From: a virus
Taxonomy: Duplodnaviria; Heunggongvirae; Uroviricota; Caudoviricetes
Reading direction: 5' to 3' (one strand)
IMG/VR virus record: IMGVR_UViG_2595698945_000001
DNA length: 64,000 nt
Shown: positions 6,003 to 64,000 of the stretch, in pieces
How the letters are laid out: each line of letters begins with the position of its first letter
How positions within the stretch are numbered: position 1 is the first letter of the stretch
Position numbers and translations under genes: made by a program
Notes under the pieces: model-generated
Seen by the model: only the letters and a program-made list of their open reading frames with translations
Databases searched by the model: none
What the model was told of the DNA's origin: nothing

Positions 6003-6134
6003 ATCCCACGCTCCACATTCACCAAGTACCTATCATTTAACCTTTACACCGCAGCCGTAGGCATTTAGGCTATATCACATATAAGAAAACAAGTTGTTTC
6101 ATACGACAATAATTCACGCAAAGGGAACTCACCA

Positions 6135-6800
6135 ATGACCAAGATCATTGTGGTTGGCGGCACAAAAGGCGGCCCAGGCAAATCTACCGTTGCCCAGCAA
6201 ATTGCGGTATGCCTCAAAGTTAAAAAGAAAAAGAAGGTTCATGTAACCGATATTGATATTCAGCGCACAACTACGAGCTGGTGTGAAGATCGTCGCCAGA
6301 ATGACGATCTTGAGCTGATTCCCTTCGCATATGTCCAGGACGACATCGTCAAACATCTTAAATCGCTTCAGGGGCGCACCGATTATGTAGTGGTGGATGC
6401 TGGTGGCTTTGACTCCGAAATTCAGCGTCTGGCGATGCTAATGGCTGACGTGATTATCATCCCGCTGCGCCCTAAACGTCGTGATTTGAAATCCCTGCGC
6501 GATATCGACCCGATTATCGACAACGTTCGCAACGTGAACGAGACTGTGAAGATCCGCGCGGTAGTGAACCAGTGTCCGTCACTGCCTTCCCAGGTGTCAC
6601 GTATTCTGGCGGCGAAAGAAATTGTAGAGACATTCGGCATCGAGGCTGCGCCGGTTAACTTGTACAACCGTAACGTTTATGACGACGCGGAAGAGGCTGG
6701 TCGTTCTATCTTTGAAATGACTGGCGCCGAACGCGATAAGAAGGCAGAAGCCGAGTTCGAAGAGTTTGTAGATTACATCATGAGTCTGGAGGAAGAATAA
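6135..6800 (+). CDS. parA: ParA partition ATPase (type Ib, small ParA)
   Basis: Deviant Walker A GGTKGGPGKST. 221 aa. Followed by a small RHH protein. Confidence 0.8.
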   Translation: MTKIIVVGGTKGGPGKSTVAQQIAVCLKVKKKKKVHVTDIDIQRTTTSWCEDRRQNDDLELIPFAYVQDDIVKHLKSLQGRTDYVVVDAGGFDSEIQRLAMLMADVIIIPLRPKRRDLKSLRDIDPIIDNVRNVNETVKIRAVVNQCPSLPSQVSRILAAKEIVETFGIEAAPVNLYNRNVYDDAEEAGRSIFEMTGAERDKKAEAEFEEFVDYIMSLEEE

Positions 6801-7159
6801 TGTCCATGAGAATGGGAGACCTTGCAAAGCGCAAAGAACCGGAAGAGCCGGTAAAAAGCAGCACCCCAATGCGCCAGCCAGTCAGACCGCAGGGGCGTCC
6901 GACTCGTGGGAAAGAGAAGATTAAGAGCCGCACAATGTCGCTGGAAGACGAGTACTTCGATCTGCTGGAGATGATGAAGTTCATCCCTCGTTTCGAGAAG
7001 TTCACCCGTTCTGACGTGATTCGTGCAGCCATTTTCCATCTGGCAGAGAAGTCGCCGCAGGAAATCGAGGACATCGTGAAACTGAACGAGGCGATCACCG
7101 CTGCCGACGTCACGATGCGCACCGATGAAATCAAACGCGAGTTGATGAAGAAAGGTTGA
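6800..7159 (+). CDS. ParG-like ribbon-helix-helix centromere-binding protein
   Basis: Overlapping start. Basic N-terminal tail plus the RHH-like segment KSRTMSLEDEYFDLLE. Partner of the small ParA. Confidence 0.55.
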   Translation: MSMRMGDLAKRKEPEEPVKSSTPMRQPVRPQGRPTRGKEKIKSRTMSLEDEYFDLLEMMKFIPRFEKFTRSDVIRAAIFHLAEKSPQEIEDIVKLNEAITAADVTMRTDEIKRELMKKG

Positions 7160-7160
7160 T

Positions 7161-7805
7161 ATGGCTAAATTTTTGTCTAGGCATTTAGGTTGGTATATTG
7201 GCTTAGCGTTGGCCATATTAGCCGCAATTGTGTTTGGCAAAGTTATCGGCTTGCTAGGAATTTCAAACCAAGGGGTTATTTCTGTTGCTGGTTCAATGAT
7301 AGGGATGATATGTAGTGGATTATACCGCAACACTTTAAAATATATTAAATCCGAAGAATACAGATTAAAAATACAAGAGTATAAAGAGAAACGTGACGAA
7401 AGTGTCAAGAAAGAGCGAGAGGCATTAAAGAGGAAGACAATCGTCGAACTTTATCTCTTGAATGAAAAGAAAACCTTCATCAAGGTTAAGCTTCTCTCTG
7501 TGATGATGATATTTTTTGGCGCAGCGCTGAGCTACTTCTTCGTCTATAGCTCTATCGTTACCATCACTGGAATTGTAGCCTTTGTTTTACTGGAGCTAAA
7601 AGAGAGAGTTTTGGCTTATCGTATAGCTAAAGGCTTTTTCGGTAATAATAGTACTGAAGCTATCCAGTTACTTAAATTTATTGAGACCAATATCGACAAC
7701 ATCGATACTGGTAGCAGTGGTGGCAAACGTAAGATATTGAATGACCCTGTTTTAGAAGAAATCCCAAATGAGAATTTGGGAAAGGGGGCTTTGGATGCCA
7801 GATAA
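7161..7805 (+). CDS. Membrane protein (4 predicted TM), low-GC cargo
   Basis: Hydrophobic helices at both ends with a Lys/Glu-rich coiled segment between. AT-rich codon usage unlike the flanking genes. Confidence 0.45.
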   Translation: MAKFLSRHLGWYIGLALAILAAIVFGKVIGLLGISNQGVISVAGSMIGMICSGLYRNTLKYIKSEEYRLKIQEYKEKRDESVKKEREALKRKTIVELYLLNEKKTFIKVKLLSVMMIFFGAALSYFFVYSSIVTITGIVAFVLLELKERVLAYRIAKGFFGNNSTEAIQLLKFIETNIDNIDTGSSGGKRKILNDPVLEEIPNENLGKGALDAR

Positions 7806-8205
7806 AGATCTGACAAGCAGATATCTCAACAGGGCAATGGATATTTTGCTATTAGGCTATCCACTTAGAACTGTTTTTGGGTCACTTATCGGTGCTCTAC
7901 TGTGGGTGGTGCTTCATATTTTTACACCATTCTTGCTTACCAAAGGCTTTGTTGTTGACTGGATATATAACGCTGGTTGTTTTGTTGTTGGCGTTTTGAT
8001 CATGAATACCAAAACAATCATTGATGTGTTCAATGGTGATGCAATCAGCGAGAAGTTTGGCAGTTCTTTGAGGCATATTGATAAGCGTCTAGATTTGTCG
8101 AATGAACAAAAACGATATTTAATTAACAAGTTATTGAGTGATCATATAGCGAACCTTACTGACAACCAAGTCAAGGAAGTTGAACAGAGAGTTACGGATA
8201 AGTAA
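7795..8205 (+). CDS. Membrane protein, low-GC cargo
   Basis: ATG at 7795 after a G-rich RBS. 2-3 TM helices. Overlaps the upstream gene end. Confidence 0.4.
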   Translation: MPDKDLTSRYLNRAMDILLLGYPLRTVFGSLIGALLWVVLHIFTPFLLTKGFVVDWIYNAGCFVVGVLIMNTKTIIDVFNGDAISEKFGSSLRHIDKRLDLSNEQKRYLINKLLSDHIANLTDNQVKEVEQRVTDK

Positions 8206-8314
8206 ATTTAACCAATGCTATTAGAACAGGTTGTTAATATTTTTAATGGCCTGTTTGTTGGTTAAGATAATTACGTGTGCCATTCTGTGTTGCAATATAA
8301 AATAGTGGATAAAA

Positions 8315-9073
8315 ATGCTATACAAATACGTAGGGCATGAAGACCCAAACGAATTAATCAAAATTCTCAAATTCTTCATCGAAGATGGAACCATCCGAGC
8401 CACCAGACCACACGACTTCAATGACCCTGCCGAATTCAAAGCAAAATTTAGTTTCGACGCCACGATACCGGAGAAGCGTGTCCGATATCATGAGATGTGG
8501 CCTGGCAAAAGCGACGATGACGGTGAGAACTGGTTAAGAGGGCGAACCAAAAACGCCGAAGAGTTTGACGCCTATATGCTGCGCGGAAATCTGCTTTTGA
8601 ATACCGGTGTGATATGCCTCACCAGAACTGACACTAATTACCTGATGTGGTCGCATTACGCCAGCTCCCACTCTGGATTTTGCATAGGGTTTGATGACGC
8701 TATTGTGGAAGCGCTGGATGACCAACACACAGCGTTAAACGGTGATGTGGAGTACGTGAAATCGCCGCCTGAAGTGAACTTCTATACCGCTGATGTGTAC
8801 GACATTGTCAGAGCCATCTTTCTGCACAAGGGTGAGAGCTGGAAGTACGAAGAAGAGTTCCGGATTATCTCTGAGCTGCCAGGGCTTAAGAAGTTCGACA
8901 CCTCGCTCATCAAAGAGATTTCTATCGGATGCAAACCCTATCCAGAGCTGGAAAGTTTTGCCCGTGAACTGCTGGACAGCAATCTGGCCGTGTACAAAAT
9001 GCTTTGCCCGACTGACTCGTACCAACTGAAGCGTGTGGAGCTGGACAAGAACCTTTCTTTTCAAGGTTACTAG
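8315..9073 (+). CDS. DUF2971-family protein
   Basis: Signature MWSHYASSHSGFCIGF typical of DUF2971. Low-GC. Confidence 0.5.
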   Translation: MLYKYVGHEDPNELIKILKFFIEDGTIRATRPHDFNDPAEFKAKFSFDATIPEKRVRYHEMWPGKSDDDGENWLRGRTKNAEEFDAYMLRGNLLLNTGVICLTRTDTNYLMWSHYASSHSGFCIGFDDAIVEALDDQHTALNGDVEYVKSPPEVNFYTADVYDIVRAIFLHKGESWKYEEEFRIISELPGLKKFDTSLIKEISIGCKPYPELESFARELLDSNLAVYKMLCPTDSYQLKRVELDKNLSFQGY

Positions 9074-9092
9074 TTCTGGCAGCTTCAATTCA

Positions 9093-9159
9093 GAACCTGC
9101 TTCTGTATATATAAATACTAAGTTACTTATTATTATTTATACGGAAGCAGGTCTTTTTC
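9093..9159 (+). repeat. Hairpin element R1 (stem acctgcttc/gaagcaggt with a 40-nt AT-rich loop carrying a Motif A variant, then a T-run)
   Basis: A near-identical element recurs at 53937-54006. Confidence 0.6.
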
Positions 9160-9268
9160 TATGCCAACTTCCGAGACACATTCCCTTCCGTTTCCACTTC
9201 CAAAAAACATCTCCAGTCGCTATGATTCGCCCATTATGTAAGTAAGTGACTACCTATCGGCGGAGCAC

Positions 9269-9994
9269 ATGAGCCAGATCTTCTTTAACACTATTAACAA
9301 CGACCAGTACGACTTCATGACCGAGTGGGACACCACAGTCATGGACAAGTGGGTGGCCGAGAATATTGGGCTGTCACGCTGCAAGGATGAGGCTGAGTTG
9401 TTCGAGACAAAGTGGTTTGATTACCGCGACATGCACCCGCTTATGGCCACATGCCTTTTCACTGAGGCATACAAACGCCAGTACTCATACATCATGCTGT
9501 CGCATGGCCGCGAACACTATGAAACGGCCCCATTCACAACCGGTTTGAAACGTGTGCCGTATCAGGAGCTGTCAACGGCGAACAAAACGTCTCTCTGGAA
9601 AGCACGCCAGTTTGCCGACCAGTACTGCTGCTCTTATGACTACTTCATTTCTACCGTTCTTTCCGCAGCTGCACGCCGTCTGTGGGGCAAATTACCGCGC
9701 CCCCAGCATCTCTGGCAGCCCGAGCTGATCGAGATATTCGAAGAGAAGTTAGCCAAACGCGCTGTAACCCGTCTGGATGACTCTCTGGTGAGTTTTAAGC
9801 ATCTGGGAGACATGCAGCACGACCCGATTCAAGAACGCTATTTTGAGTGGGTTCTGGAGCGTCTGCGTGGCATTACCCGAGACAAGCGCGTCCGCATCAT
9901 CTTCTCCGCTGTCTGGTTGATGGAAATCGTGCCTGAGCGTGTGATTTACGCGCACTTCCCGGAAGAACTGGAAGAAGCACGGCGATTCTGTTGA
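9269..9994 (+). CDS. Hypothetical protein (upstream of the helicase; possible helicase loader)
   Basis: 241-aa ORF. No motif recognised. Confidence 0.45.
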   Translation: MSQIFFNTINNDQYDFMTEWDTTVMDKWVAENIGLSRCKDEAELFETKWFDYRDMHPLMATCLFTEAYKRQYSYIMLSHGREHYETAPFTTGLKRVPYQELSTANKTSLWKARQFADQYCCSYDYFISTVLSAAARRLWGKLPRPQHLWQPELIEIFEEKLAKRAVTRLDDSLVSFKHLGDMQHDPIQERYFEWVLERLRGITRDKRVRIIFSAVWLMEIVPERVIYAHFPEELEEARRFC

Positions 9995-10054
9995 TCCCCT
10001 ATCTGGCTTTTTTAGTATTAGAAAACAAATTATTTAAGCACCAAAGGAAAGCAC

Positions 10055-11395
10055 ATGACCGAACTTTGCCACACAGGACGAGGGTTGTCTGAAGAGTTCG
10101 ACGACGACTTCCAGAATCGACTCGCAGCCTACTTCTGTCGTGACCATGAATTTCTGACTCGCGCCGGTGATCTGGTTGCGCCAAACCAGTTCTCCAATGC
10201 GGCCAACGCCATTCTGGTGAACATGGTGTCGGGCTACTACAGAATGTATAAGAGCGCACCATCATCGTCGGCCATACTCGACATGCTCAAACGCGCCAAA
10301 CGCGATAAGACGATCCGCGAAGAGCTGTTCCCCGACGTCGTTGAGGCGTTTAAGCGGATTCTCGCTGAGAAACTGTCAGACACGGCGTACATGGTCGACC
10401 AGGTCGCGACGTTTGCCAAAAGCGTAGCGTTCGACGACGCGCTGATTAAAGCGGCTGAGATGAAAGAGAAGGGCGATTTCCAGGGCGCGATGGCAATCAT
10501 GGCCAAAGTCCAGCAAATCGGCTCTAACGAAGCGACCGGCATTTACGATTACTTCTCTGAATCAGCAGAGCGTTACAAGGCGCGTGAGTACGAAGCGTCC
10601 GACGATTACGTGCCAAACAGCATCACAACGGGTCTACCGCTGCTCGACAAGCTGCTTTACCAGAAAGGCTGGGCAAAGCGTGAGATGGTGCTGTTCATGG
10701 GCTTCGCGAAGTCTGGTAAATCGACGGCGATGGGTGAGTTCTCCATCAACGCTACGCTTGCCGGTTACAACGTCCTGTATCTGTCGCTGGAAGTTCACAC
10801 CTCCATTCTGTCAGATCGCTTTGACGCCCGTTTGTCTGAGACCGAAATGTCCAAGCTGGTGGAGCGCCGCGACGACGTCCATCGCAAACTGGCAGAGCTG
10901 GGCGCGACGAAAGGCGTGGGGAGCTTGTGGATTGTTGAGCGACCGTCCGGAAGCATGTCGCCTGCAGATCTGGATCGTATGTTGGGCTGCATGAAAGCCA
11001 ATGGCATGATCCCCGACATGGTCGTGGTCGACTACGCCGACCTGATGCGTGCCAGCTACGACCTCCGCGACGACCGCGCCAACATTCGCAGCATCTACAC
11101 TGACCTGCGTGCGCTGTACGACAAACACAACGTTGCCGGCATCACTGCATCGCAGACTAACAGGGAAGGTGGTGCTTCTGAGGTGGCCACAATGATGCAC
11201 GCAGCGGACAATATCGAGAAGGTGCGTATCGCTGACCTCGTTATCACTATCAACAAAACGGAAGAGGAAGAAGCGAAAGGCGAAGCGCGTCTTTACTTCG
11301 CTGGTTCACGTAACCAGAAAGGCGGCGTAAGCATCCGCGTTAAGCAGAACCTCGAACAAATGCGATTCATCGAACGCATTATGGACGTCCTATAA
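10055..11395 (+). CDS. DnaB-family replicative DNA helicase
   Basis: RecA-fold C-terminal domain with Walker A GFAKSGKST, Walker B VVVDYADLM and an SQTNREG (DnaB SQLNR-like) motif. Confidence 0.7.
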   Translation: MTELCHTGRGLSEEFDDDFQNRLAAYFCRDHEFLTRAGDLVAPNQFSNAANAILVNMVSGYYRMYKSAPSSSAILDMLKRAKRDKTIREELFPDVVEAFKRILAEKLSDTAYMVDQVATFAKSVAFDDALIKAAEMKEKGDFQGAMAIMAKVQQIGSNEATGIYDYFSESAERYKAREYEASDDYVPNSITTGLPLLDKLLYQKGWAKREMVLFMGFAKSGKSTAMGEFSINATLAGYNVLYLSLEVHTSILSDRFDARLSETEMSKLVERRDDVHRKLAELGATKGVGSLWIVERPSGSMSPADLDRMLGCMKANGMIPDMVVVDYADLMRASYDLRDDRANIRSIYTDLRALYDKHNVAGITASQTNREGGASEVATMMHAADNIEKVRIADLVITINKTEEEEAKGEARLYFAGSRNQKGGVSIRVKQNLEQMRFIERIMDVL

Positions 11396-18162: not shown

Positions 18163-18237
18163 GATGGTGTAGCTCAGTGGTAGAGCGGTTGACTGTTAAT
18201 CAACTGGTCGGTGGTTCGAGTCCACCCACCATCGCCA
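18163..18237 (+). tRNA. tRNA-Asn (anticodon GTT), CCA encoded
   Basis: Cloverleaf built by hand: acceptor GATGGTG/CACCATC, D-arm gctc-agtggta-gagc, anticodon arm gttga-ctGTTaa-tcaac, T-arm ggtgg-ttcgagt-ccacc, discriminator G, then CCA. Confidence 0.8.
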
Positions 18238-18310
18238 ACATAGCGCTGAACGGTTTGGAGTTCGCCACCACCGTCCGCACAGTTTAATACCACCGCTCGC
18301 CCCCTCTAGT

Positions 18311-18345
18311 GCCTGTACGAACAGATTAGATACCTGTTCGTACAG
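18311..18345. promoter_or_regulatory. 12-bp perfect inverted repeat ctgtacgaacag-N9-ctgttcgtacag upstream of cobT-like gene
   Basis: Seen in sequence. Candidate operator. Confidence 0.4.
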
Positions 18346-18398
18346 TGATAAATTACGCACATCAGAAAACAAATTGTTTAAATAACAAGGAAATTCTC

Positions 18399-22257: not shown

Positions 22258-25200
22258 ATGAAGGCTCTGATGGTCAGAACTGACTTCTCCCTGGGAGAGT
22301 CGGCTCTAAAAGCAGAAAACGCGGTGAAAATCGCGAGAGACGCTGGCTACACCGCTGTCATTTCCGCTGACAGCATGAACATTGCCAGTGTGATCCCCCT
22401 GCAGCGTGCCGCTGGCGACGACATGGCGGTTATTTGTGGTGTTAAGCTGAATGTGGTCGACGATCCGACATACGAGCACCGCGCCCGCCTGGCGAAAGAG
22501 TCAGGAGGATGTATGGAATCATTGGTGCGTGATCGCAGCTACTGCTTCACGGCACTGATAAAGAATGAGCAAGGTTATCGCGACGTGTGCGAACTGATGA
22601 CCTTAGCCAACAAGCGCGAGCAATTCTACTTTGTCCCGCGTCTGGCACTTGACCAGCTGGCGGCCGCATATGCCAAAGGCAACATCATCCTGCTGACGTC
22701 CGACATTGGCAGTGTATTCCAGCGCCGGGACTTCGCAAAGATTATCGGGACGCTGGTGACAGCTGGAGGACGCGATAACTTCTACAGCGTGGTTTATCCG
22801 CACCCTACCCCATTCTACGACCAGATTAACGTCCGGGCGATGAAAGTGGCGAGCGCACTGAAAATAGAGCCAGTGGCGTTCTATCCCGCTTATTATGAAG
22901 CGGTCGACGACGCTGACATTAAAGACATTGCGCACATGGTTACGAACAACATCAAAATCGACCAGCCGCATCGTCTGCGTATTCCCCACCAGCGAGATAA
23001 CGCCGTTAATGGTCGCCGCCATCTCCTTGAAGCGCTGAAAGCCTTCTCCGTTCGAATGGATGTGCCGGTAACAGCTGCAATGGCCTCAACAACGCAGGAC
23101 ACCATTATTGAAGCCTGCACATGGCGCTGGCATGAATTGCCACCAGCACTGCCCAAGATGGCAGATGACGAGCCTGCAACGCTGATGAAGCTGGCTGTCG
23201 CGGGGCTACGCAAGCGTCTTACTACCAAAGAATTTGGCTACACACCACCGGCTTCTGAGCACCGTGTGTATGTTGATCGCCTGAAGTACGAAATGGACAC
23301 GCTGACCCGCCTGGGCTTCTGTGGCTACTTCCTGATGGTGCGCGACCTGATGAATCACAGCCGTGAAACTGGCATTCCTGTCGGGCCAGGTCGTGGTTCC
23401 TCTGCCGGTTCTCTGGTGGCGTGGTGCATCGGCATAACCAACGTCGATCCTATCCGTCACGGTCTTCTGTTTGAGCGTTTCATCAACCCTGAACGTCTCG
23501 ACTTACCGGATGCGGATCTGGACTTCAGCCAGGCACGTCGTCATGAGGTGATCGAGTATCTGAATGAACGCTATGGCGAAGATTACGTTGCCGGTATTCC
23601 GAACTTCACCTATCTTGGCGCTGCCTCTGCGCTGCGTGACACCGCGCGTATTTACGGTGTCGATGCTGCGGATATGGCGGTATCCAAAGAGTTCAAGAAT
23701 CTTGAGGACGATAGCCTGTCTCTGGAAGAGCTGCGCGAGCAACTGGCCAGCCTGGACAAATACGCCACGAAATACCCGGAAGCGTTCAAAGCGGCGTGTA
23801 AGCTGCAAAGCTTGATGCGTGGTTTTGGTCGTCACGCTGCTGGGATGATCGTCGCTGGCGTTCCACTGGTAGAGCGCACGCCCGTCGAGCTGCGTGGCAA
23901 CGCTCGCTGTATTGCGTTCGATAAACGTTACTGCGAGGCGATGGGGCTGATTAAGCTGGACGTTCTCGGTCTGGCAACGCTCGATCTGCTGGATAGCGCG
24001 AAACGCTACATCAAAGAGAGTACCGGGGAAGACATCAATCTCGATGCTATTCCACTGGACGATCGTAAGGTTCTGGATGGGTTCGCTGCAGGGTACACGC
24101 AGGGCGTATTCCAGCTGGAGTCCGGCCCCATGCGCAAGCTGCTTAAAGATCTGGGCGGTGGCATTGAGCCAATGAGCTTCAAAACCGTTGTCGCCACGAC
24201 CGCACTCTTCCGACCTGGCCCGATCCAATCCGGCATGTTGGACGACTATGTCTCCGTGGCCAAAGGCTTCATGGCTCCACAGTCGCTGCACCCGGTACTG
24301 GACGAACTTACCGCGGAAACAAACGGCGTGATTCTGTATCAGGAACAGACGATGAACGCGACACGATTGCTGGCTGGCTTCACGATGGCCGAAGCTGATG
24401 GTGTGCGTAAAGCGATCGGTAAAAAGGATATGGAAAAGATGAAGAGCATGGGTGAGAAGTTCGTCGTTCAGGCTCAAGCTGGTTGGATCGACGTTGAGAT
24501 GGAAGACGGCACCACGCAGCGTATTCACCGCGCGGAACACTTCAAATGTGAGGACGGCGCACTGCGGACGGTAGAAGAAGCGCTGGAGGCTGGTGTGAAA
24601 TTACCTATGGCTGCTGTACGCGTTACAGGGTCACAACCGGGATTGTCTGAGACGAAAGCGAAGGAGATCTGGGATGCCTTCGAGAAGAACGGTGCGTACC
24701 AATTCAACAAATCACACAGTGTTGCTTATTCTTTAATCAGCTATCAGTCTATGTGGTTAAAGACACATTACCCTGCTGAGTTCTTCGCTGCTGCGCTCAC
24801 CATTCTGGGCGAGGATAAGCACCAGGGGCTGGTTAAGGATGCGCTGACCTATGGCATTCGCGTATTGCCACCAGACGTTAACGTGTCATCTAACCGAATT
24901 GAGATCCGCACGCTGGAAGACGGCAGCCAGGTTCTGTATTCGCCATTCTCTGCTGTGAAAGGCTGCTCTGAGAATGGTTGCCAGGCCATCATGAGAGCGC
25001 GTGAGAAAGTTGGCGGTAAATTCAAGTCACTTGAGCAATTTGAGGAAGCGGTCGAGAAGCGTGCGTGTAACAGCCGGGTACGCGAGTCACTGCAAAAAGT
25101 AGGTGCGTTCGCATCGATAGAGTCAGGCAGTCTGCCAGCGACAGATCCGGAACGTCTGCGCGACCAGGCAGAGTTGATGGGCAATCTGGTGATCGACGCT

Positions 25201-32462: not shown

Positions 32463-32582
32463 TTTCCGTATTATCACCAACAAGAAAACAAATTGGTTAC
32501 TAATACGGAATTACCATCCGTAAAAGTACAAAGTGACAACGCCACATAGTTGTTCGGCAACGGAATGAGAAGGAGATCGGGA

Positions 32583-34464: not shown

Positions 34465-35065
34465 ACCACTGCGGTGAGTAGCCAGCTCACCGCGTGCGTA
34501 TCCGACTCATAACCACTGTGGTGAGTAGAACACCATTCAGGTATGCAATCCAACCACTGTAGTGAGTAAAACGACTGCCGTGATATCCGGTATCCACTGT
34601 AGTGAGCAAAGTAGCGATTATCGACGTCGCCATCCACTGTAGGGAGTAAACAGGCGTTCATTCGCAGCAAACAACCACTATAGCGAGTGATGGAATGCGC
34701 TCTCCAGCGGGTATCCACTATGGAGAGTAAACCTTCACTGTTTTCAGCGGATATCTACTCACTACAGTGGTTAGTAAACCCAGCCAACCGATTCTGCTCT
34801 CCACAGTGGATAGCCAATAACGAAGGGAACAACGATAACCACTATAGAGAGTGGGTTTAACAAGATACCCAGTGACCACTAACCTCGCAGCCCTTGATTC
34901 ATCTAGGTTTGTAACCACTAACATTTATTTCGTTGTTTGCGTGCCACTGCCTACAGTGGTTACTCTTCGGTTGCTGTTACTCACTACAGTGGATAGCGGA
35001 TTCCAGATAAACAAAAGGCTCACTACAGTGGATAGTGAGCCTTTCTACTCTCTACAGTGGTTGGG
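34465..35065. repeat. Iteron array (about 14 copies of CCACTGTAGTGAGTA / TACTCACTACAGTGG-type repeats) distal to repA
   Basis: Repeats read directly from the sequence: ccactgcggtgagta, ccactgtggtgagta, ccactgtagtgagta, ccactatagcgagtg, tactcactacagtgg, ctcactacagtggatag and others, in both orientations. Confidence 0.8.
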
Positions 35066-36130
35066 CTATTTACGAGTTTTAGCTTTGCGCAGCTCTTCGA
35101 GAATCGCCAGTTCTTCCTTGCTTAACATGACCATCTCACCGTCTTTTTCTTCAGGAACAACATCGATGATGTCCTCCTGATCATCACCAGGCAAGCTATC
35201 TTCCTGCTCTTCTGGTTCTTCCGGCGCAGCTTTAACTGGTGGCAATGCCGGGCGTAACTTCGGCCGCCTATAGTGGATGATGAAGTAGACCGAGCTGCCG
35301 CGCTTCACTTCGGTGTAATCGAGATAGCCGATCTCCCGCAGCTGCTCCATCGCCTTCCTGACTGTCGCGTTCTGGGTAATGGTGCGGCTGGTTAAGTTAA
35401 GTCTGGCGCGTAATCGAGCCAACGAGATTGGTGCCGGGTCAGGTGGCAAACTTTCGATGAAGGTGTAGAGCGCCTGCGCGGATTCTTTTCTGGAGAGTTC
35501 GTTGATTGCCCGGAGTTGCAGAAGAACCTTTTTGTCGAACTGATAGAGTTCGAAAATCTTAGGATCAGCCTGCAGCGAGACCGTGTCGTTCTTAGTGCTG
35601 TACTTTGCTGTCTGCACAAGGTGCGTCACGTAATACTCATCAGAGCCTTTACTGCGGAATGAGATAGTGTTTGTGGCGATACGAGTTAGAGAACTGTCCA
35701 GGCGCTTACGTAACTTCGCGGACGATCTGGCCGTTGGTATGCCACAGAGCCTGACGAACTCGACGAACGGTAACGTGACAGTATCGCCAACAACCTTGTG
35801 TTTGGCGAACGCGTGGATGATGCCTACCCACGTTTTGAAGTCGTTATCCATATCCAGACGAACGCCGGAGATCCTTATGTCTTCGTACCCTTCGGCTTTG
35901 GCCAGAGACAGCTGTTTGAGTTCAGCAGAGGCGTCCATAGAGACCATTTGCCCCTTTCTGCCCCTGGCGGTCGATTTCAGCGTCGGAACGAAGAGACCAA
36001 GACGCATCAGAGCAACAGGCTGAACTGTGTTGTTGGTGTTAGGAACTAACGTAACAACTTCGCCGGTCTTTTTGTCTGTTTCTGAGAATGCTTCAACGAT
36101 CGCTATGTTTTTATTGCCGTTTTCGCTCAT
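35066..36130 (-). CDS. repA: Replication initiator RepA, RepFIB family
   Basis: Strong resemblance to P307/F RepFIB RepA recalled from memory ([84 protein letters not shown]). Iterons on both flanks. Confidence 0.85.
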
Positions 36131-45794: not shown

Positions 45795-45901
45795 TGAGCG
45801 TGGGGAGAAATCCCCACCTTTTCATTGAGTTGAGCACCTTGTTTAAACCAATAAGATAACAATTTGTTTAAAGCCATTCGATAACATTCAGAGGGAAACA
45901 C

Positions 45902-54347: not shown

Positions 54348-54372
54348 TCGGTAAGTACTTACCATTTAAAAC
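54345..54372. promoter_or_regulatory. Motif A palindrome copy
   Basis: aataatcggtaagtacttaccatttaaa. Confidence 0.5.
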
Positions 54373-56407: not shown

Positions 56408-56425
56408 TTAAAACAAATTGTTTAG
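56408..56425. promoter_or_regulatory. Motif B palindrome copy upstream of rha
   Basis: ttaaaacaaattgtttag. Confidence 0.5.
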
Positions 56426-58103: not shown

Positions 58104-58120
58104 GAAAACAATTTGTTTAA
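58104..58120. promoter_or_regulatory. Motif B palindrome copy
   Basis: caccaacaagaaaacaatttgtttaa. The same extended context occurs at 32471-32499. Confidence 0.5.
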
Positions 58121-59816: not shown

Positions 59817-59842
59817 TAGGTAAATACTTACCTAATTTATGT
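59812..59842. promoter_or_regulatory. Motif A palindrome copy
   Basis: aaatgataggtaaatacttacctaatttatg. Confidence 0.5.
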
Positions 59843-59874
59843 AAGAATAGATCCACTTTATCAGAGGTAAACAC

Positions 59875-60564
59875 ATGAGCGAAAAATCGAGAATTACATT
59901 CGCCAGCGTTGATCAGGCGAAGCTGCCATTTAATTTAGTGCTACAGGGGAACGCAGGAGCGCCTGCCGGAACCATCAAAATCGACAAGGAGCTTGTGACG
60001 TTCGAAGGTAACTTTGATGAATCGGCGCAGGTTTTTATCGACCATCTGGCACGCCGTTGGAGCCAGCAGTGGAGAGACCTTGAGAAACGCGCCAATGAGT
60101 TTGACCGGTTCATGGACGCAATGGACACAGCAAAAGAGGCTCTGGCTGCCGGCACTCCGTTAGATCTGGAGTCGCTTTTCAAAGGAGAGATGGCCTCTGC
60201 GATGTTCGCCACCATGTTCGCAGGTGAGTTTGTCCGCAGCGGCGCCAGAAACTACCTGGAGCTGGGGTACAACGTTCCTGAAATGGGCGAGTTTACCGTC
60301 ACCATCCAGCGCAAAGAAGGTAAGACGCCAGGCGAACGTATCGCTGAACTTGAGGCCGTTGTGGATCAGCGTAACGGCGAGTGCGTCCGTTTGATCAACG
60401 AACGTGATGCGCTGCGCGAAGAACAGCTGAACAAAGGCTCGAACACACGCGCGGCCGCAGACATTTACTTCCAGTTAGTTGAGGAATGCCAGATCCCGCC
60501 AGGCGGCTCTTTGGTTGAGTACGTTCGCGAATTGCAGGAGAAAGCAGAGAGGTGCGCGGCATGA
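59875..60564 (+). CDS. Hypothetical protein
   Basis: RBS GAGG. 229 aa. Confidence 0.4.
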   Translation: MSEKSRITFASVDQAKLPFNLVLQGNAGAPAGTIKIDKELVTFEGNFDESAQVFIDHLARRWSQQWRDLEKRANEFDRFMDAMDTAKEALAAGTPLDLESLFKGEMASAMFATMFAGEFVRSGARNYLELGYNVPEMGEFTVTIQRKEGKTPGERIAELEAVVDQRNGECVRLINERDALREEQLNKGSNTRAAADIYFQLVEECQIPPGGSLVEYVRELQEKAERCAA

Positions 60565-60842
60565 ATGACCTGCTTGTCGAGCGAGTCTCCGCTTTTGTTA
60601 AGTCCCCGCTGGACAATCCCCTCACCCGCGGTGAGCAGATGGAGCTGGCAAGGTGGTTTCTGCATATCCATGAGCAGATGGAAGTTTTTAAACAGTTGCC
60701 GGATCTGCCCATTACAGACGGCCATGTTCAGCAAGTGATTAACAGCCACGAAAAAGGCTGGGCGATGATTGTGCCGTGCAAAATTACCTACGAGCTGGCT
60801 AAGGAAGTGCAGGCTAACAGAGCAAGGAGTAAGGAAGAGTAA
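60552..60842 (+). CDS. Hypothetical protein
   Basis: Overlapping start. Confidence 0.4.
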   Translation: MRGMNDLLVERVSAFVKSPLDNPLTRGEQMELARWFLHIHEQMEVFKQLPDLPITDGHVQQVINSHEKGWAMIVPCKITYELAKEVQANRARSKEE

Positions 60843-60844
60843 CT

Positions 60845-61216
60845 ATGAAGTTGGGTAATGCCGTTTCGCTGTTTTTTACAGCATTACTGGAAGGTTTCAA
60901 TTATCGCTTTTGTCCGGTCTGGGATAAGGCGCTGGATACGCTTATTGAGGAAGGAACGCTGCTTGAGGTGCGAAATGGGATCGCGCTGTTTGAGCGCGAC
61001 GCCCAGCTATATGAAGTGTTCGTCGGGGCTGGCTTCAACCACTTTGGGCATCTTATTAGCTTGAATACCAAAGCCATCGACGAGAGCGTTATGCGCCGTC
61101 CGTCGTTCCGTGTAATGGATAAGCTGCAACGTCATGTAAATGCCGAATTACTCCGCGTAGCCAAAGAAAAAGAACGAGAGCTACAGGCGATGATTGGATC
61201 GCTTATCGCTGAGTAA
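60845..61216 (+). CDS. Hypothetical protein
   Basis: 123 aa. Confidence 0.4.
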   Translation: MKLGNAVSLFFTALLEGFNYRFCPVWDKALDTLIEEGTLLEVRNGIALFERDAQLYEVFVGAGFNHFGHLISLNTKAIDESVMRRPSFRVMDKLQRHVNAELLRVAKEKERELQAMIGSLIAE

Positions 61217-61219
61217 ATG

Positions 61220-61254
61220 AAGGCCACTATTGTGGCCTTTAACAATTTGTTTTC
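61220..61254 (+). promoter_or_regulatory. Composite element: ggccacta-N-tgtggcc hairpin plus Motif B
   Basis: aaggccactattgtggcctttaacaatttgttttc. The same composite occurs at 63242-63277. Confidence 0.5.
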
Positions 61255-61307
61255 TACCTTTTCTTATCTGTGAAAATAACCACATCCAGAAAACAACGGA
61301 GTTAAGA

Positions 61308-61949
61308 ATGTCCCGTATTTCCAAAGCCCATATGTTTGCCGCTGGCGCTCATGGCGGCGTTGGCCAGAAAAGAAAATATACCGGTGAAGACTACATCAAC
61401 CACCCGGTTGCTGTCCGCGAGATTGTTGCCTGGCATGGTGGAACCGTGGAGATGCAGATCGCGGCGCTGCTGCATGATGTGGTCGAAGACACCCATGTCA
61501 CCATAGAGATGGTTCGTGAACACTTCGGTGAGCACGTAGCCGAAATGGTTCTGGCTCTGACCAACATTGCCAGACCAGAAGACGGCAATCGAATACAGCG
61601 CTTCATCATCAACGTCCGGGAGCTGGAGCAAAGCCTCGACATGCAGACGCGCATGATCAAGCTGGCTGACCTGCTGGACAATACCTCTTCTATCGTGAGT
61701 CGCGACCCTGAGTTTTCAGCCATCTACCTCGCAGAGAAAGAGCTGATGCTGGCCGTACTCTTTGACGGCAAGGAGATTGGTGCCGATGCCGGTGTTGTCG
61801 AGTACCTGGAGAAAAAAGGCATAGAGCATTCGTTACTGATAAACGCCCGGGCGATGGTGACGAAAGGCATTGCCAGTCTGCAACCGGTACACACCAAACG
61901 TTATGAAAAACACAAAGCGCTGATCTGGAACGCGTGGGAGGCTGCATGA
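61308..61949 (+). CDS. HD-domain small alarmone hydrolase (SpoT/RelA-like (p)ppGpp hydrolase domain, Mesh1-like)
   Basis: AHMFAAGAHGGVGQKRKYTGEDYINHPVAVREIVA...AALLHDVVEDT...FGEHVAEMVLALT matches the SpoT HD hydrolase signature. No synthetase domain. Confidence 0.6.
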   Translation: MSRISKAHMFAAGAHGGVGQKRKYTGEDYINHPVAVREIVAWHGGTVEMQIAALLHDVVEDTHVTIEMVREHFGEHVAEMVLALTNIARPEDGNRIQRFIINVRELEQSLDMQTRMIKLADLLDNTSSIVSRDPEFSAIYLAEKELMLAVLFDGKEIGADAGVVEYLEKKGIEHSLLINARAMVTKGIASLQPVHTKRYEKHKALIWNAWEAA

Positions 61950-62497
61950 AGGTCGAGAAATTAGATGTTCTTTCCTTTGTGCTGACGGATCTGGAACGTC
62001 TCGACCCGGTACGCGTAATGATTGAAAACTACGAGCCGGGTAAGGGAAGAGTCACTATAACCTGCTATGGGAAAGCGTGGACTGCCGCCTGGTTTGCGAT
62101 GGGCGGTGATGATGTTCAGACATTTATTAAGCGAGTGAGTGATGATTACTTGATTGGCTGCCTCGCCCCTCAACTGCGAAGTACGGTCGACGATGACAAC
62201 GACGCAAATCTGATTTTCGTAAAGTCCGAAATCATAAAGTTGCGCAGAGAGAGGGAAATCGACGCAGAAACGGCCAGAAATATCTGGGACGAAGCTGAAA
62301 ACGCTGATGACGTAAAAGAGAGTTGCTGCTGTTTCGGAGTAGGTAAAGAACTGCTGAGTTTGTTTGGCGATGATCCGTGGTATGCAGGCTGGCCAACGGT
62401 GCCAAATCCAGCATACCAATACCTTGAGCGTATTGTCAGAGCGGTACGTGATGGACTGAAAGTGGTTGACGATCAGTCGAGAGAAGCAGTTGGTTAA
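61946..62497 (+). CDS. Hypothetical protein
   Basis: ATG after RBS GGAGG. Overlaps the upstream stop. Confidence 0.4.
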   Translation: MKVEKLDVLSFVLTDLERLDPVRVMIENYEPGKGRVTITCYGKAWTAAWFAMGGDDVQTFIKRVSDDYLIGCLAPQLRSTVDDDNDANLIFVKSEIIKLRREREIDAETARNIWDEAENADDVKESCCCFGVGKELLSLFGDDPWYAGWPTVPNPAYQYLERIVRAVRDGLKVVDDQSREAVG

Positions 62498-62535
62498 GTG
62501 ATATAGTCAGGCGCTTTTGTATTTATGGAGTGAAT

Positions 62536-63234
62536 ATGAAAAATATCCTACTGGCATCATTGTTGGTGGCATCGCCGGTCTCATTTGCAGCCAGCTTTGA
62601 CTGCCAAAAGGCTTCGACAGAAATCGAACACAAAATCTGTGACAACGAACGCCTGTCAAAATTAGACGAACAACTTAGCGCAACCTATTCCAGCGCGCTC
62701 AAGGCTAACCCAGAAAATGCAGATACCCTAAAGGCGGTTCAACGACAGTGGGTAAATATGCGTGGAAAACTCACTGATGATAAGGCTCTGGAGCTGGCTT
62801 ATCTTATCCAAATTAATGGTCTCAATGGCTTAGGTGTTCCGGCCGCTACAGCAGCGGTCAATGAGACACCGAAGCCGGCGCAGAAACAGCCTGAAGTTCA
62901 GGAAAAGACAAGCAAGGCAGACGCAAAGCCGGCCAAGAAAGGTAATGAGCTAACTCTGGAATCATTCCGGGCTAAGTATATTGAGGTCAATGGTGAGTAC
63001 TACAGTACGACATCTCTTCCCAGAGGGAGTTCGTTTTTGTTCACCTGCGCCAGTCGCATTGCTGACGACCAGGTAAATGTCTGGAAGAAGCACGCAGCAA
63101 AAGAGGGCAAGATCGACCTTTTCTTTGAGCTTGAGAATCGCATACACACCGCGATGTTGAATGCCAATTTTCAGCAGCTGAATAGTGATTTAACTAAAAC
63201 AGGCATTTGCGATCTGATTACCGCTGTGCCATAA
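62536..63234 (+). CDS. Periplasmic DUF1311 (LprI/YecT-like, lysozyme-inhibitor-type) protein
   Basis: Signal peptide. FDCQKASTEIEHKICDNERLSKLDEQLSATY...VQRQWVNMR fits the DUF1311 pattern. Confidence 0.5.
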   Translation: MKNILLASLLVASPVSFAASFDCQKASTEIEHKICDNERLSKLDEQLSATYSSALKANPENADTLKAVQRQWVNMRGKLTDDKALELAYLIQINGLNGLGVPAATAAVNETPKPAQKQPEVQEKTSKADAKPAKKGNELTLESFRAKYIEVNGEYYSTTSLPRGSSFLFTCASRIADDQVNVWKKHAAKEGKIDLFFELENRIHTAMLNANFQQLNSDLTKTGICDLITAVP

Positions 63235-63241
63235 GACAGAT

Positions 63242-63277
63242 AAGGCCACTAATTGTGGCCTTAAACAATTTGTTTTA
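63242..63277 (+). promoter_or_regulatory. Composite element: hairpin plus Motif B
   Basis: aaggccactaattgtggccttaaacaatttgtttta. Confidence 0.5.
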
Positions 63278-63289
63278 TTGATGGTGAAA

Positions 63290-63493
63290 TCAATGGAACC
63301 CCAGGCGAACTAAATCCATTGGGCAGAACAGACCTTCCACACCTTCGATAGATACGCAGTCAGAGCGGCGTAATTGTTCTTCTGATTTGCCTTCTCCACA
63401 GATTTCCTTGATGACTCCCGTTGCACCATTCGTTGCCACCATCACCCGGCTGCCGGCAGTGATAACGTTACGGTTGCGATCATAGGTCTTCAT
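63290..63493 (-). CDS. Hypothetical small protein
   Basis: Strong minus-strand RBS GAAAGGAGGAAA. Confidence 0.4.
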   Translation of the reverse strand: MKTYDRNRNVITAGSRVMVATNGATGVIKEICGEGKSEEQLRRSDCVSIEGVEGLFCPMDLVRLGFH

Positions 63494-63680
63494 CGTTTCC
63501 TCCTTTCACATGGGTCAAATCAGGTCTCAAACGTTGTCGTTTTCCATGTATGTGCAATTACCAAAATCTCAAGTGCCGAAACAAATTGTTTTCACCCCCT
63601 GGTTATTCCCTTAATCCGTAAAGTTGACCGGTATAATTACAAATACCACTGTTTATATATACAGTATCGAGGGCGGAAAA

Positions 63681-63947
63681 ATGGGACTCAAAGACTCAAA
63701 CTATCAGATCGTCTACAGAGGTGAGACTCTTCAAAATTTCAAACCGGGGCAGTACGTTTTCTTTCAACGATTGAAGGAGTATGGCGGCGGATACTGGTTG
63801 GGCAGGACTCATGAAGATGGGTTCGAGTTTTTGCTGGAAGAACCAACCTCGCTGGGAAGAGGTCTTGAGTTTCTGATAACGCACTCGAGCGTGGAGGCCA
63901 GATTTATCGAGTTCGTCAACGATGCGGACGACTTTAAACTCACCTAA
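63681..63947 (+). CDS. Hypothetical protein
   Basis: ATG after RBS GAGGGCGGA. A Motif B copy lies upstream at 63578-63594. Confidence 0.35.
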   Translation: MGLKDSNYQIVYRGETLQNFKPGQYVFFQRLKEYGGGYWLGRTHEDGFEFLLEEPTSLGRGLEFLITHSSVEARFIEFVNDADDFKLT

Positions 63948-64000
63948 TCATCCCTTAAACATCTTGTTTTCTACCTTTTGTTATTTGAGATAATAACGCC

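Follow-up and report, generated by a model that had tools for sequence, protein, structure and literature searches.

Motif B, a palindromic family in reused promoter cassettes of the Salmonella phage-plasmid SSU5 and a putative repressor operator

Dispersed operators in comparable systems

Control of a replicon through dispersed operators is already known. In P1, one phage-plasmid repressor, C1, acts at many dispersed 17-bp operators, some of them paired, and KorB of RK2 is a partition-family global repressor whose site OB, a 13-bp palindrome with a central base, is repeated about a dozen times. SopB of the prophage-plasmid N15 reportedly has dispersed centromere sites. For omega of pSM19035, a ribbon-helix-helix (RHH) protein of type Ib partition, the parS sites overlap several promoters, and type Ib systems combine a tail-plus-core architecture with a dual centromere/repressor role (PMC5016525). 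At the RNA level, FljA prevents the translation of fliC mRNA (PMC2652032; bioRxiv 10.1101/2025.10.27.684867).

We analysed a window of 64,000 nucleotides, corresponding to record positions 24363-88362 of the Salmonella phage-plasmid SSU5. About 20 small promoter cassettes of SSU5 carry, just 3' of the -10 box and in the orientation of the downstream gene, a 17-base near-palindrome (motif B, consensus GAAAACAAnTTGTTTAA), whose core is a 13-bp dyad, AAACAA-n-TTGTTT, with asymmetric flanks. It also occurs in many relatives, including pHCM2-type plasmids and Yersinia pestis pMT1. Motif B is an enriched and conserved motif of fixed geometry, and the genes behind it are silent in the lysogen of the relative Cyrano. 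No description of it was found in the searchable literature. Motif B is most likely the site of one repressor that silences these genes in the plasmid state. Our preferred reading, held tentatively, is an operator in a reused promoter cassette, bound by a plasmid-state repressor for which SSU5_034 is the best candidate.

As for P1 C1, a single repressor would act on many scattered promoters via 17-bp operators; however, the C1 operator (ATTGCTCTAATAAATTT) lacks symmetry and its repressor gene has been identified, whereas motif B is a dyad with only a candidate binder, and SSU5 has no obvious CI-like gene. The candidate 034 would instead resemble KorB, N15 SopB or omega. The KorB system shares a repeated 13-bp palindrome with a central base and a partition-family repressor, but KorB, a large ParB/CTPase, acts from upstream or over a distance, and motif B is placed 3' of the -10 box. 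SSU5 has two ParB_N proteins (125 and 126), both silent in the lysogen. Like N15, SSU5 would be a phage-plasmid with palindromic partition-protein sites scattered through phage-gene control regions, so that maintenance and phage gene expression would be coupled; N15 differs in having four sites for a type Ia SopB (HTH), whereas a small type-Ib-like protein would have about 21 sites in SSU5, at +5 to +21. As with omega, whose sites overlap the promoters of several units and whose affinity is tuned by subsite number and arrangement, a small protein partnering a ParA-type ATPase would also serve as global repressor (PMC5016525), and 034 has the same tail-plus-core layout and gene position. Omega, however, uses arrays of 7-10 heptads, whereas in SSU5 about 21 locations carry a lone 17-bp dyad or a pair; for 034, both the RHH fold and DNA binding are putative; and the omega regulon comprises copy-number and toxin-antitoxin genes, that of SSU5 phage early, accessory and late genes. 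SSU5 also encodes a protein of the FljA family, and in both cases the target lies in a short 5' leader beside the Shine-Dalgarno sequence (SD), but FljA has one known target with no reported dyad, and the fliC leader does not resemble motif B leaders significantly.

Enrichment, cassette geometry and symmetry

With up to one mismatch, AAACAAnTTGTTT has 12 copies in the window and 20 genome-wide, where about 0.3 are expected, and AAACAANTTGTTT has 12 in the window versus 0.20-0.27 expected and 20 genome-wide versus 0.31-0.38 (Markov models of order 1, 3 and 5). At the same tolerance, AACAAWTTGTT was observed 10 times, with 1.8 expected. Because the excess persists over these models and over an intergenic-only background (20 copies versus 0.13-0.19 expected; maximum 2 in 1000 simulations), AT-richness does not explain motif B, and the enrichment suspected in the preliminary description holds. 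The promoter-proximal bias was borne out as well: 21 of 21 strong sites are intergenic (intergenic share of the genome, 11.6%), and the family stands before partition, replication, nucleotide-metabolism and accessory genes.

All eleven copies listed in the preliminary description exist, seven at the positions given and four off by one (10020 becomes 10021, 56408 becomes 56409, 61239 becomes 61238 and 63578 becomes 63577). Its consensus, TTAAACAAATTGTTTAA, is not the best one, and GAAAACAAnTTGTTTAA replaces it. The extended context CACCAACAAGAAAACAA is indeed common to 32471 and 58091; the context TTGTTTTCTACCTTTT is common to 61238 and 63955, but not to 63261. These TTAAAC...GTTTTC copies had been taken for a context class of their own and are instead inverted copies, two of which (61238 and 63955) are followed, at a distance of exactly 51 bp, by a copy or half-site in the downstream orientation, while the third (63261) lies between convergent genes beside a terminator-like hairpin.

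Table 1. Motif B sites and the parA locus in the SSU5 window
Feature	Position	Strand	Context
Putative parA promoter, read from sequence	6043..6071	+	-35 TTTACA (6043-6048), 17-nt spacer, -10 TAGGCT (6066-6071)
Motif B, GAAAACAAGTTGTTTCA	6085..6101	+	parA promoter; ATG 33 nt downstream
parA (SSU5_033)	6135..6800	+	Small Walker-type partition ATPase (annotation); homologue Pfam families CbiA, MipZ, AAA_31
SSU5_034, candidate motif B binder	6800..7159	+	119 aa; start corrected; ATG overlaps parA stop
Motif B	10021..10037	+	DnaB-like helicase ATG 17 nt downstream; orthologous site in Cyrano (32078), L144, L146, L147, L231
Motif B	18365..18381	+	CobT-like gene 049 17 nt downstream; orthologous sites pMT1 89257, Cyrano 43103
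Motif B	32484..32500	+	3' of terminator-like hairpin and TATTAT box; gene 063 82 nt downstream; orthologues pMT1 50065, Cyrano 58593
Weak neighbour of nrdB site	45830-45846	inverted	25 bp upstream of nrdB site
Motif B	45855..45871	+	Between nrdA terminator and nrdB; ATG 30 nt downstream; Cyrano orthologue 70324
Motif B, TAAAACAAATTGTTTAG	56409..56425	+	Flanked by two hairpins; Ant/Rha-like gene 093 148 nt downstream
Motif B, GAAAACTACTTGTTTAA	57381..57397	+	Gene 094 19 nt downstream; Cyrano orthologue 81276; missed in preliminary description
Motif B, consensus copy	58104..58120	+	DNA methyltransferase gene 095 ATG 10 nt downstream
Motif B, inverted upstream copy	61238..61254	-	Directly 3' of gene 098 terminator-like hairpin; 51 bp upstream of 61289 half-site; Cyrano orthologue 85816
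Motif B, left half-site only (GAAAACAAC)	61289..61305	+	SD of gene 099 in place of right half; missed in preliminary description
Motif B	63261..63277	-	Between convergent genes 101 and 102, abutting bidirectional terminator-like hairpin
Motif B	63577..63593	-	Divergent 102/103 region, facing gene 102
Motif B, inverted upstream copy	63955..63971	-	Last base 17 nt 5' of GATAAT box
Motif B, partner of 63955 copy	64006-64022		51 bp downstream, just past window end; gene 104 10 nt downstream
Strong motif B sites outside window (n=9)	genome 54, 79, 88368, 90738, 92167, 92757, 93660, 93711, 94523		

The cassette consists, in order, of the terminator of a preceding unit where there is one, a -10-like hexamer (GATAAT or TATTAT), 11 nt with CCAAYAA, GAAAACAAnTTGTTTAA, the SD and the ATG; a -35 is usually not recognisable. 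Motif B typically starts 11 nt after the -10-like hexamer (good hexamers end exactly 11 nt before it in 25 of 56 cases), whereas its distances to the SD are spread over 0-30 nt, with most sites ending 0-6 nt 5' of the SD and usually 10-33 nt 5' of the ATG. At parA it starts 13 nt after the -10, and this promoter layout is repeated in L144 and L146 (TTGTCA-17-TAGGCT) and in L231 (TTTACA-17-TAGTAT). Among 265 sites, some have a partner at a spacing of exactly -51 bp (inverted in 22 cases, direct in 9), and further partners occur at +/-25 bp; the spacing of the 63955 copy from its GATAAT box (Table 1) means that this copy covers the -35 position. The copies at 63261 and 56409 lie outside any leader. 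In a sister cassette of the same genome, a perfect LexA box occupies the equivalent position, 9-11 nt after TATAAT and just 5' of the SD.

Among 135 non-redundant sites, C6 is present in all 135 and G12 in 129, the centre is free, and mirrored substitutions are tolerated at mirrored positions. Compensatory changes were looked for in variant sites and none were seen, and an RNA hairpin would be worth just -0.7 kcal/mol; the symmetry thus suggests a DNA-bound dimer and not a fold. Motif B is kept at orthologous promoters with diverged flanks in Cyrano, pMT1, L129/L131, L144-L147 and L231, and its conservation extends to orthologous promoters of divergent Klebsiella and Enterobacter plasmids. Every IMG/VR locus that carries several sites is SSU5-like. 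In the distant Moellerella plasmid, the family was not found, only half-sites such as ATAAGAAAACAA at parA.

Lysogen expression and competing readings

In published Cyrano lysogen RNA-seq (PMC9928086, table S1), genes behind motif B have values of 5-13 against a median of 9.8. The parA operon (50-89), which has a real -35, stands out clearly; the helicase (21) and CYRAN_111 (25, weak motif B site) are slightly elevated. Because these genes are silent, the regulon proposed in the preliminary description is a fair reading, and motif B is, as stated there, distinct from the second palindrome family, motif A (TAAGTA/GGTAAG..TACTTA/CTTACC). The suggested split between maintenance/lysogeny and lytic-early control does not fit: motif B fronts the parA maintenance operon, early replication genes, many small accessory genes and the late terminase operon leader, and motif A precedes late structural, early and lysogen-expressed genes alike. 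What we infer is DNA-level binding, repression and the identity of the binder. A two-fold symmetric protein would bind the core dyad as double-stranded DNA, at about +5 to +21, and would block RNA polymerase; at some promoters, a second inverted copy over the -35 (51 bp upstream) or a 25-bp neighbour may lead to cooperative binding or a small loop. Such a repressor, if produced during the plasmid state, would keep about 20 units silent (replication, nucleotide metabolism, small accessory, terminase leader).

Binding of the operator by another protein, namely a CYRAN_45-type HTH repressor, SSU5_123, SSU5_130, or an unrecognised or host factor, is a reading that we consider somewhat doubtful; all DNA-level evidence for an operator applies to it equally. 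Lysogen expression was seen for CYRAN_45 (96) and for the 123 homologue CYRAN_117 (114); a beta-alpha-alpha pattern is clear in RHH-like 123, of the helicase/FljA-like operon, where the CQVxL strand is invariant; and winged-helix-like 130, just upstream of the terminase sites, is conserved at 80-100% and adjoins a double site before terS. The integrase/CYRAN_45 module, and with it the HTH repressor, is present in nearly all relatives but has been lost from SSU5, as would suit a phage that was isolated as lytic. However, the CYRAN_45 control region lacks motif B and carries a GGTAAGTGCTTACC palindrome (motif A type), the promoter region of the 123 operon has motif A rather than B in four lineages, 130 is silent in the Cyrano lysogen (7.8), and all three types are present in the Moellerella plasmid, which is without the family. 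HicB-like 054 was considered as well; its promoter carries a different palindrome, GTTGAC..GTCAAC. We know of no enterobacterial transcription factor with motif B as its site.

The main rival is RNA-level control, which we judge unlikely: the conserved FljA-like tandem Sm-fold protein SSU5_121 (PF03614, E 3e-81) would bind the leader AAYAAGAAAACAAnUUGUUUAA beside the SD, block translation and destabilise transcripts. This reading would suit the known function of the family in blocking fliC mRNA translation, the closeness of most sites to the SD, their orientation with the gene, and the expression of the protein in the Cyrano lysogen (log2 7-8 versus about 3 for silent genes). The protein is found in 831 plasmids, including pMT1, but not in the Moellerella plasmid, which alone among the relatives has no motif B family; this contrast, however, amounts to one event, and 60 further genes are missing along with it. 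The Salmonella fliC leader has CCAATAA, CAAGTTGT and AAGGA in common with SSU5 leaders, but its PWM score is negative, and its local alignment ranks in the top 2-4% of genomic windows, with 9% of shuffles equalling it. In single-stranded RNA there would be no reason for complementary halves to form an exact dyad, and the hairpin is negligible, with no covariation. Nor does this reading accommodate inverted copies with a fixed 51-bp offset over the -35, or copies outside leaders. The spacing of motif B is tighter relative to the -10 than to the SD, and at parA, nrdB and terS motif B lies 17-60 nt from the SD. That no dedicated regulator exists appears improbable. The cassette would then have spread by duplication with accessory gene cassettes, and motif B would persist because it serves as initial transcribed sequence, translation enhancer or terminator U-tract, with an incidental palindrome. 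Reuse of the entire cassette (-10, CCAAYAA, motif, SD), the highest motif density in the variable accessory region, lone left half-sites at 61289 and in Moellerella, and inverted copies providing the T-rich tail of terminator-like hairpins are consistent with this, but the core is far better conserved than the remaining cassette, equally in both halves, and is kept at orthologous core-gene promoters despite diverged flanks. The 51-bp and 25-bp partners and the lysogen silence despite good -10 boxes also argue against it.

SSU5_034 as a candidate binder

If the preferred operator reading holds, SSU5_034 would be a type-Ib-style centromere-binding partner of ParA that autoregulates the stronger parA promoter via its motif B site, and the dispersed sites, if bound by 034, could double as a centromere. 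Lysogen expression of its homologue CYRAN_29 was 89. The N-terminal tail of 034 is variable and disordered, and is followed by an invariant, RHH-like KSRTMSxEDE...FTRSDVIRAAI segment; this beta-alpha-alpha-like core is conserved down to 48% identity and largely kept in remoter homologues, e.g. P0116 and P0118. Two family members have sub-threshold RHH_1 matches at the right place (E 0.005 and 0.11). For 034 itself there was no Pfam match above cut-off, hhalign against ParG was negative, and the monomer model is of low confidence.

Several comparisons count against this reading. Type Ib centromeres are normally repeat arrays beside the operon, and the parA locus has one palindrome, with no local repeat array found. 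The co-distribution of the FljA-like protein matches motif B better than that of 034, which the Moellerella plasmid retains, with the putative DNA-reading strand almost unchanged, without a motif B family. Likewise, pMT1 lacks parA and 034, yet keeps seven motif B sites; its phage part is 97-100% identical to SSU5, and there was therefore no time for decay. The asymmetric flanks, which track the direction of transcription, would not be required by a purely symmetric operator. In its favour, 034 is alone among the candidate DNA-binding proteins in carrying motif B at its own promoter across all SSU5-like lineages examined, the parA promoter site being present in Cyrano, L144, L146, L147 and L231. 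The L233 copy is weaker and inverted, about 110 nt upstream of parA.

Sequence and placement of motif B

Motif B has the consensus GAAAACAAnTTGTTTAA in a set of 135 non-redundant sites drawn from SSU5, its relative Cyrano and IMG/VR contigs. The 13-bp core, AAACAA-n-TTGTTT, hardly varies (C6 in 135/135 sites, G12 in 129/135) around a free centre base, and the flanks are asymmetric, with G1 in 121/135 and A16 in 117/135. At one mismatch or fewer, AAACAANTTGTTT has 12 copies in the window and 20 in the genome as a whole, whereas order-1, -3 and -5 Markov models expect 0.2–0.4 copies. An intergenic-only model (11.9 kb, 44% GC) expects 0.13–0.19, with a maximum of 2 in 1000 simulations, and shuffled-sequence controls agree with the enrichment. 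Motif B is the commonest inverted repeat of the SSU5 genome, and its strong sites are intergenic in 21 of 21 cases, in a genome with an intergenic share of only 11.6%.

All the copies listed in the preliminary description are present in the sequence, and its observation is confirmed and strengthened; every copy is real, four of them being placed one base off. The two ways in which that description could have been wrong both fail. AT-richness or chance is excluded as a cause by the order 1–5 Markov and intergenic-only backgrounds (20 copies in the genome against 0.13–0.4 expected), and an absence of promoter bias is contradicted by the intergenic position of all 21 strong sites. To our knowledge, none of the host factor sites (PhoP, PurR, Zur, IHF, Fis, LexA and others) fits motif B. 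The literature on SSU5, promoters, palindromes, repressors and lysogeny, so far as it was covered, which was incompletely, does not describe the motif.

Motif A, the other palindrome family, reads TAAGTA/GGTAAG..TACTTA/CTTACC, e.g. cGGTAAGTACTTACCa at 54351. Most of its copies lie 19–66 nt ahead of start codons, of late structural and early genes alike, and a few are farther off or inside a CDS. Motif A also stands ahead of the lysogen-expressed CYRAN_45 and of the ParB-like gene 125, and it occurs in the distantly related Moellerella plasmid.

Positions of motif A copies and of paired motif B copies
Feature	Coordinates	Positions	Context
Motif A	window	9238, 14729, 17420, 27813, 31342, 43417, 47999, 48158, 54351, 55546, 59825	
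Motif A	genome	2042, 5475, 9071, 21946, 93169, 99798	
Motif B, 51-bp pair		63955 + 64006	
Motif B, 51-bp pair		61238 + half-site 61289	
Motif B, 51-bp pair	genome	93660 + 93711	
Motif B, 25-bp pair	genome	54 + 79	one example, ahead of terminase small subunit gene

Promoter cassettes and expression in the lysogen

Alignment on the motif reveals one cassette that is reused at motif B sites. It often opens with the terminator-like hairpin and T-run that close the preceding unit, as seen downstream of nrdA and of gene 062, and the tail of this hairpin accounts for the recurring string GCCTTTTC. A -10-like hexamer (GATAAT, TATTAT or GAAAAT, at times with TGn) follows, usually with no -35, and then come 11 nt with CCAAYAA, motif B, a Shine-Dalgarno (SD) sequence and the ATG. 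Upstream of the 135 sites, 25 of 56 good -10-like hexamers end exactly 11 nt ahead of motif B and another 13 stand at 18 nt, which represent the inverted class. Distances from motif B to the SD are scattered (0–30 nt). A consensus sigma-70 scan, which also picked up terminator-like hairpins abutting the copies at 61238 and 63261, found no promoter at motif B sites because the -35 is missing, and classical sigma-70 promoters are ruled out there with the exception of parA, the sole motif B promoter with a good -35 (TTTACA or TTGTCA, 17 nt, TAGGCT or TAGTAT). If transcription starts about 7 nt past the -10, motif B would span about +5 to +21.

Among 265 strong sites with non-identical context, partner copies cluster at two spacings, exactly -51 bp (22 inverted and 9 direct) and +/-25 bp. 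The upstream copy of the 51-bp pairs ends 17 nt before the -10, covering the -35 position, and the G-ends of both copies point to the promoter. The class that the preliminary description had defined by the context TTAAACAATTTGTTTTCTACCTTTT corresponds to these inverted upstream copies; it holds at 61238 and 63955 and is to be withdrawn at 63261, where the context is absent and the genes are convergent. The proposal of two regulons is supported as far as a motif B regulon is concerned, and not in its division between maintenance/lysogeny and lytic-early control.

In the leader of the terminase small subunit gene terS (genome sequence L003, 54–125), a hairpin, GAGCGCA-agga-TGCGCTC, and then a T-rich run lie between the motif B pair and the ATG at 134; the late operon may therefore also be under termination/antitermination. 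The double site is kept in Cyrano, pMT1 and the relatives L129/L131.

Normalised counts have been published for every Cyrano gene in an LF82 lysogen (PMC9928086 table S1). Genes directly behind motif B have counts of 5–13, against a median of 9.8, and this low group comprises terS, cobT, nrdB and CYRAN_58, 85, 87, 93, 101, 105, 106, 108 and 110; higher counts belong to the parA operon (50, 89 and 55), the helicase (21) and CYRAN_111 (25) (PMC9928086 table S1). The site of CYRAN_111 is weak (16-bit). Motif B targets are silent in the Cyrano lysogen bar the parA operon and a low signal at the other two genes, though most phage genes are silent there too. Ciprofloxacin induces Cyrano 39-fold.

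A short S24-peptidase (UmuD/LexA-like) gene occurs in some relatives (L233 4638–5000, L125 39311–39700) and is strongly expressed in the Cyrano lysogen (148); in L233 it and parA point away from each other, and a motif B-like site lies between them. The region upstream of SSU5_120 (L002 36230–36330) has a near-consensus sigma-70 promoter (TTGATT, 16–17 nt, GATAAT) behind an A/T-rich stretch and neither motif A nor motif B, unlike the -35-less motif B cassettes; the Cyrano homologue of SSU5_120 is nonetheless silent in the lysogen.

Distribution among SSU5-like phage-plasmids

The window is 100% identical to record positions 24363–88362 of Salmonella phage SSU5 (NC_018843.1 / JQ965645), the genome of which (103,299 bp) was taken whole with its annotation. 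A large group of phage-plasmids has SSU5 as its type member. Matches to parts of the window were obtained with 845 PLSDB plasmids, their hosts being Klebsiella, Escherichia, Enterobacter, Yersinia, Salmonella and others, and the candidate genes are present in about 800 PLSDB plasmids, including those of the S. Typhi pHCM2 type and Y. pestis pMT1. SSU5-like phage-plasmids are common among clinical Enterobacteriaceae, and some carry resistance genes (PMC9600943).

Cyrano, whose coding DNA is about 80% identical to that of SSU5, has motif B ahead of terS (two copies), parA, helicase, cobT, nrdB and numerous small genes; the sequences flanking these sites have diverged. Seven sites are retained in pMT1, at shared genes, and the same sequence recurs in more divergent plasmids (Enterobacter/Nissabacter, Klebsiella and others). 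The exact 17-mer is found in many IMG/VR contigs; loci with multiple strong sites are all SSU5-like or lie in the variable region of an SSU5-like contig, and unrelated contigs have single, chance-level matches. The Moellerella plasmid NZ_CP093251.1 has synteny and about 70 proteins in common with SSU5 (25–84% identity) and lacks the motif B family; what remains are left half-sites (ATAAGAAAACAA), located at parA and in a handful of other positions.

An integrase and CYRAN_45-type HTH repressor module is missing in SSU5 at window ~18235–18360 (tRNA-Asn to the cobT-like gene); it occupies the same position in Cyrano, pMT1, the Moellerella plasmid and most related plasmids. Possibly SSU5 arose by deletion and thereby lost a classical repressor.

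The probable operator and its candidate binder

Motif B is probably the DNA operator of a repressor at work while the element is a plasmid. Binding to DNA by a protein of two-fold symmetry is favoured because the dyad is exact, its halves being complementary and its mirrored positions tolerating mirrored substitutions, because the motif is in sharp register with the -10, and because there are partners at 51 bp and 25 bp and copies outside any leader. The motif recurs at many promoters, as the P1 C1 operators do, with 21 strong sites, and it starts 11 nt past -10-like boxes. A sister cassette at gene 103 provides an internal control: a LexA box stands where other cassettes have motif B, and thus the operator of a known DNA-binding repressor fills the cassette slot. 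In that cassette TATAAT (63632–63637) is followed after 9–11 nt by a perfect LexA box (cACTGTttatatatACAGta, 63647–63666), an SD and the ATG, which is 14 nt from the box, a geometry like that of the motif B cassettes; the gene (63681–63947) encodes an 88-aa protein of phrog_2100. Gene 103, being LexA-controlled, is a candidate for the SOS trigger that sets off induction.

An RNA structure is rejected for motif B: its hairpin reaches only -0.7 kcal/mol, leaders fold no better than shuffles, and variant sites have no compensatory changes. Over the window, Rfam covariance models at gathering score matched tRNA-Asn only. A different RNA-level reading involves SSU5_121, a member of the FljA family (PF03614, E 3e-81) with a tandem Sm-like domain fold; FljA is reported to block fliC mRNA translation (PMC2652032). 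SSU5_121 is expressed in the lysogen and occurs in 831 plasmids, pMT1 among them; the Moellerella plasmid lacks it. Its action on motif B leaders as RNA would fit their position, their orientation and the co-distribution of gene and motif, but would not account for the dyad, for the inverted copies over the -35 or for those lying outside leaders, and we consider it improbable. Copies are not confined to sense leaders near the SD, as there are the inverted 51-bp -35 copies, one copy between convergent genes and others 17–148 nt from the SD. The Salmonella fliC leader and the SSU5 leaders have CCAATAA, CAAGTTGT and AAGGA in common; the PWM score of the former is negative, its local alignment ranks in the top 2–4% of genomic windows and 9% of shuffles match it, and the likeness of the fliC 5' UTR to motif B leaders is not significant. 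A DNA operator and FljA-like RNA control could also be at work together.

The 9-mer TATAAGGGT was seen three times on the gene strand in L002 36430–36670 (genome 96793, 96885 and 97030), once within the FljA-like gene, towards its 3' end, and twice shortly past it, the latter two as TTTAAAT(C/A)TATAAGGGT. Profile coverage and homologues show that the annotated starts of two candidate regulators are too short: SSU5_121 starts at genome 97424 (175 aa, not 148; L002 36535–37062, genome 96897–97424) and SSU5_034, the small ParA partner, at window 6800 (window 6800–7159; 119 aa, not 96).

As binder of motif B, the plausible regulators SSU5_034, 121, 123, 130, 054 and the CYRAN_45-type protein were screened. 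Tentatively, 034 is the best single candidate, because it alone of 034, 123, CYRAN_45 and 054 has motif B at its own promoter and because only its family biology would predict such a site. Its ATG overlaps the parA stop, in one operon downstream of a small Walker-type ParA, and the parA-034 synteny is the same in all lineages. Homologues have a variable, disordered and basic N-terminal part, and the segment P-R-P-QGRPTRGK-I-SRTMS-EDE...FTRSDVIRAAI stays unchanged in proteins with as little as 48% overall identity and is largely kept by remoter members (IRSRTISLEEE, IRSRTFSLEDE, IKSRTVSMEDE). This putative layout of tail and core is the one described for type Ib centromere-binding proteins, which are also repressors of their own operon (PMC5016525). 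All SSU5-like lineages that have 034 carry motif B at the parA promoter. It lies 11–13 nt past the -10 in SSU5, Cyrano, L144, L146, L147 and L231; the L233 copy is weaker, inverted and ~110 nt upstream, and that of Moellerella is degenerate. Further, the Cyrano homologue of 034 is expressed in the lysogen.

The weak points of 034 are its retention in Moellerella without the regulon, the absence of a local array and a ribbon-helix-helix (RHH)-like fold that is only putative. Within ~1 kb of the par genes, three lineages have no repeat array, only a single dyad, the other copies being dispersed. Both hhalign and a PDB profile search were negative for homology to ParG or any solved structure. The family comprises only 18 clusters at 50% identity, and no relatives were found outside SSU5-like elements, the contexts examined all being SSU5-like. 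Covariation of motif and protein is uninformative, since motif B is identical across lineages in which the FljA-like protein is 55–58% and 034 is 48–60% identical. The plasmid pMT1 keeps sites without parA and 034, but its phage part is 97–100% identical to SSU5, which makes this natural deletion uninformative.

Among the other proteins, SSU5_123 is RHH-like and strongly expressed in the lysogen, and the promoter region of its operon has motif A, not B; SSU5_130 is winged-helix-like and silent in the lysogen. The CYRAN_45-type HTH repressor, missing from SSU5, adjoins the integrase, and its control region has a palindrome of the motif A type and no motif B. The HicB-like 054 is rejected because its own promoter has GTTGAC..GTCAAC in place of motif B, and the 'repressor-like' SSU5_116 because it is not conserved in Cyrano.

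A broader scheme, which we regard as possible though rather doubtful, would make the small ParA partner the master phage silencer in SSU5/pHCM2/pMT1, the 17-bp dyad of ~20 promoters both its operator (at early, accessory and late genes) and a dispersed centromere, and LexA-controlled gene 103 the SOS trigger. Partition and lysogeny would then run on the same protein-DNA contacts.

The kind of regulatory design is already known, and motif B is in an under-studied but widespread element. P1 C1 has many dispersed 17-bp operators, the parS sites of omega of pSM19035 overlap several promoters, KorB binds 13-bp OB palindromes, and N15 SopB has dispersed centromeres within phage control regions. Motif B is like these in logic but not in sequence. 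We describe it as omega-, KorB- or N15-like, rather than as a member, because the local repeat array, a defining feature of type Ib centromeres, is absent in three lineages. Lysis/lysogeny control of SSU5-like phage-plasmids is essentially uncharted, and a single sharp operator marking ~20 promoters gives experiments a direct point of entry: the regulon is defined by it, transcription units and start sites can be predicted from it, and the regulator is narrowed to a few testable proteins. If a partition protein is the binder, one DNA code would clearly serve both plasmid maintenance and prophage silencing.

Finally, ten copies of CCACTGTAG/CTACAGTGG were observed on both sides of repA (35066–36130), at window 34554–35052, 36240 and 36579; these are presumably replication iterons.
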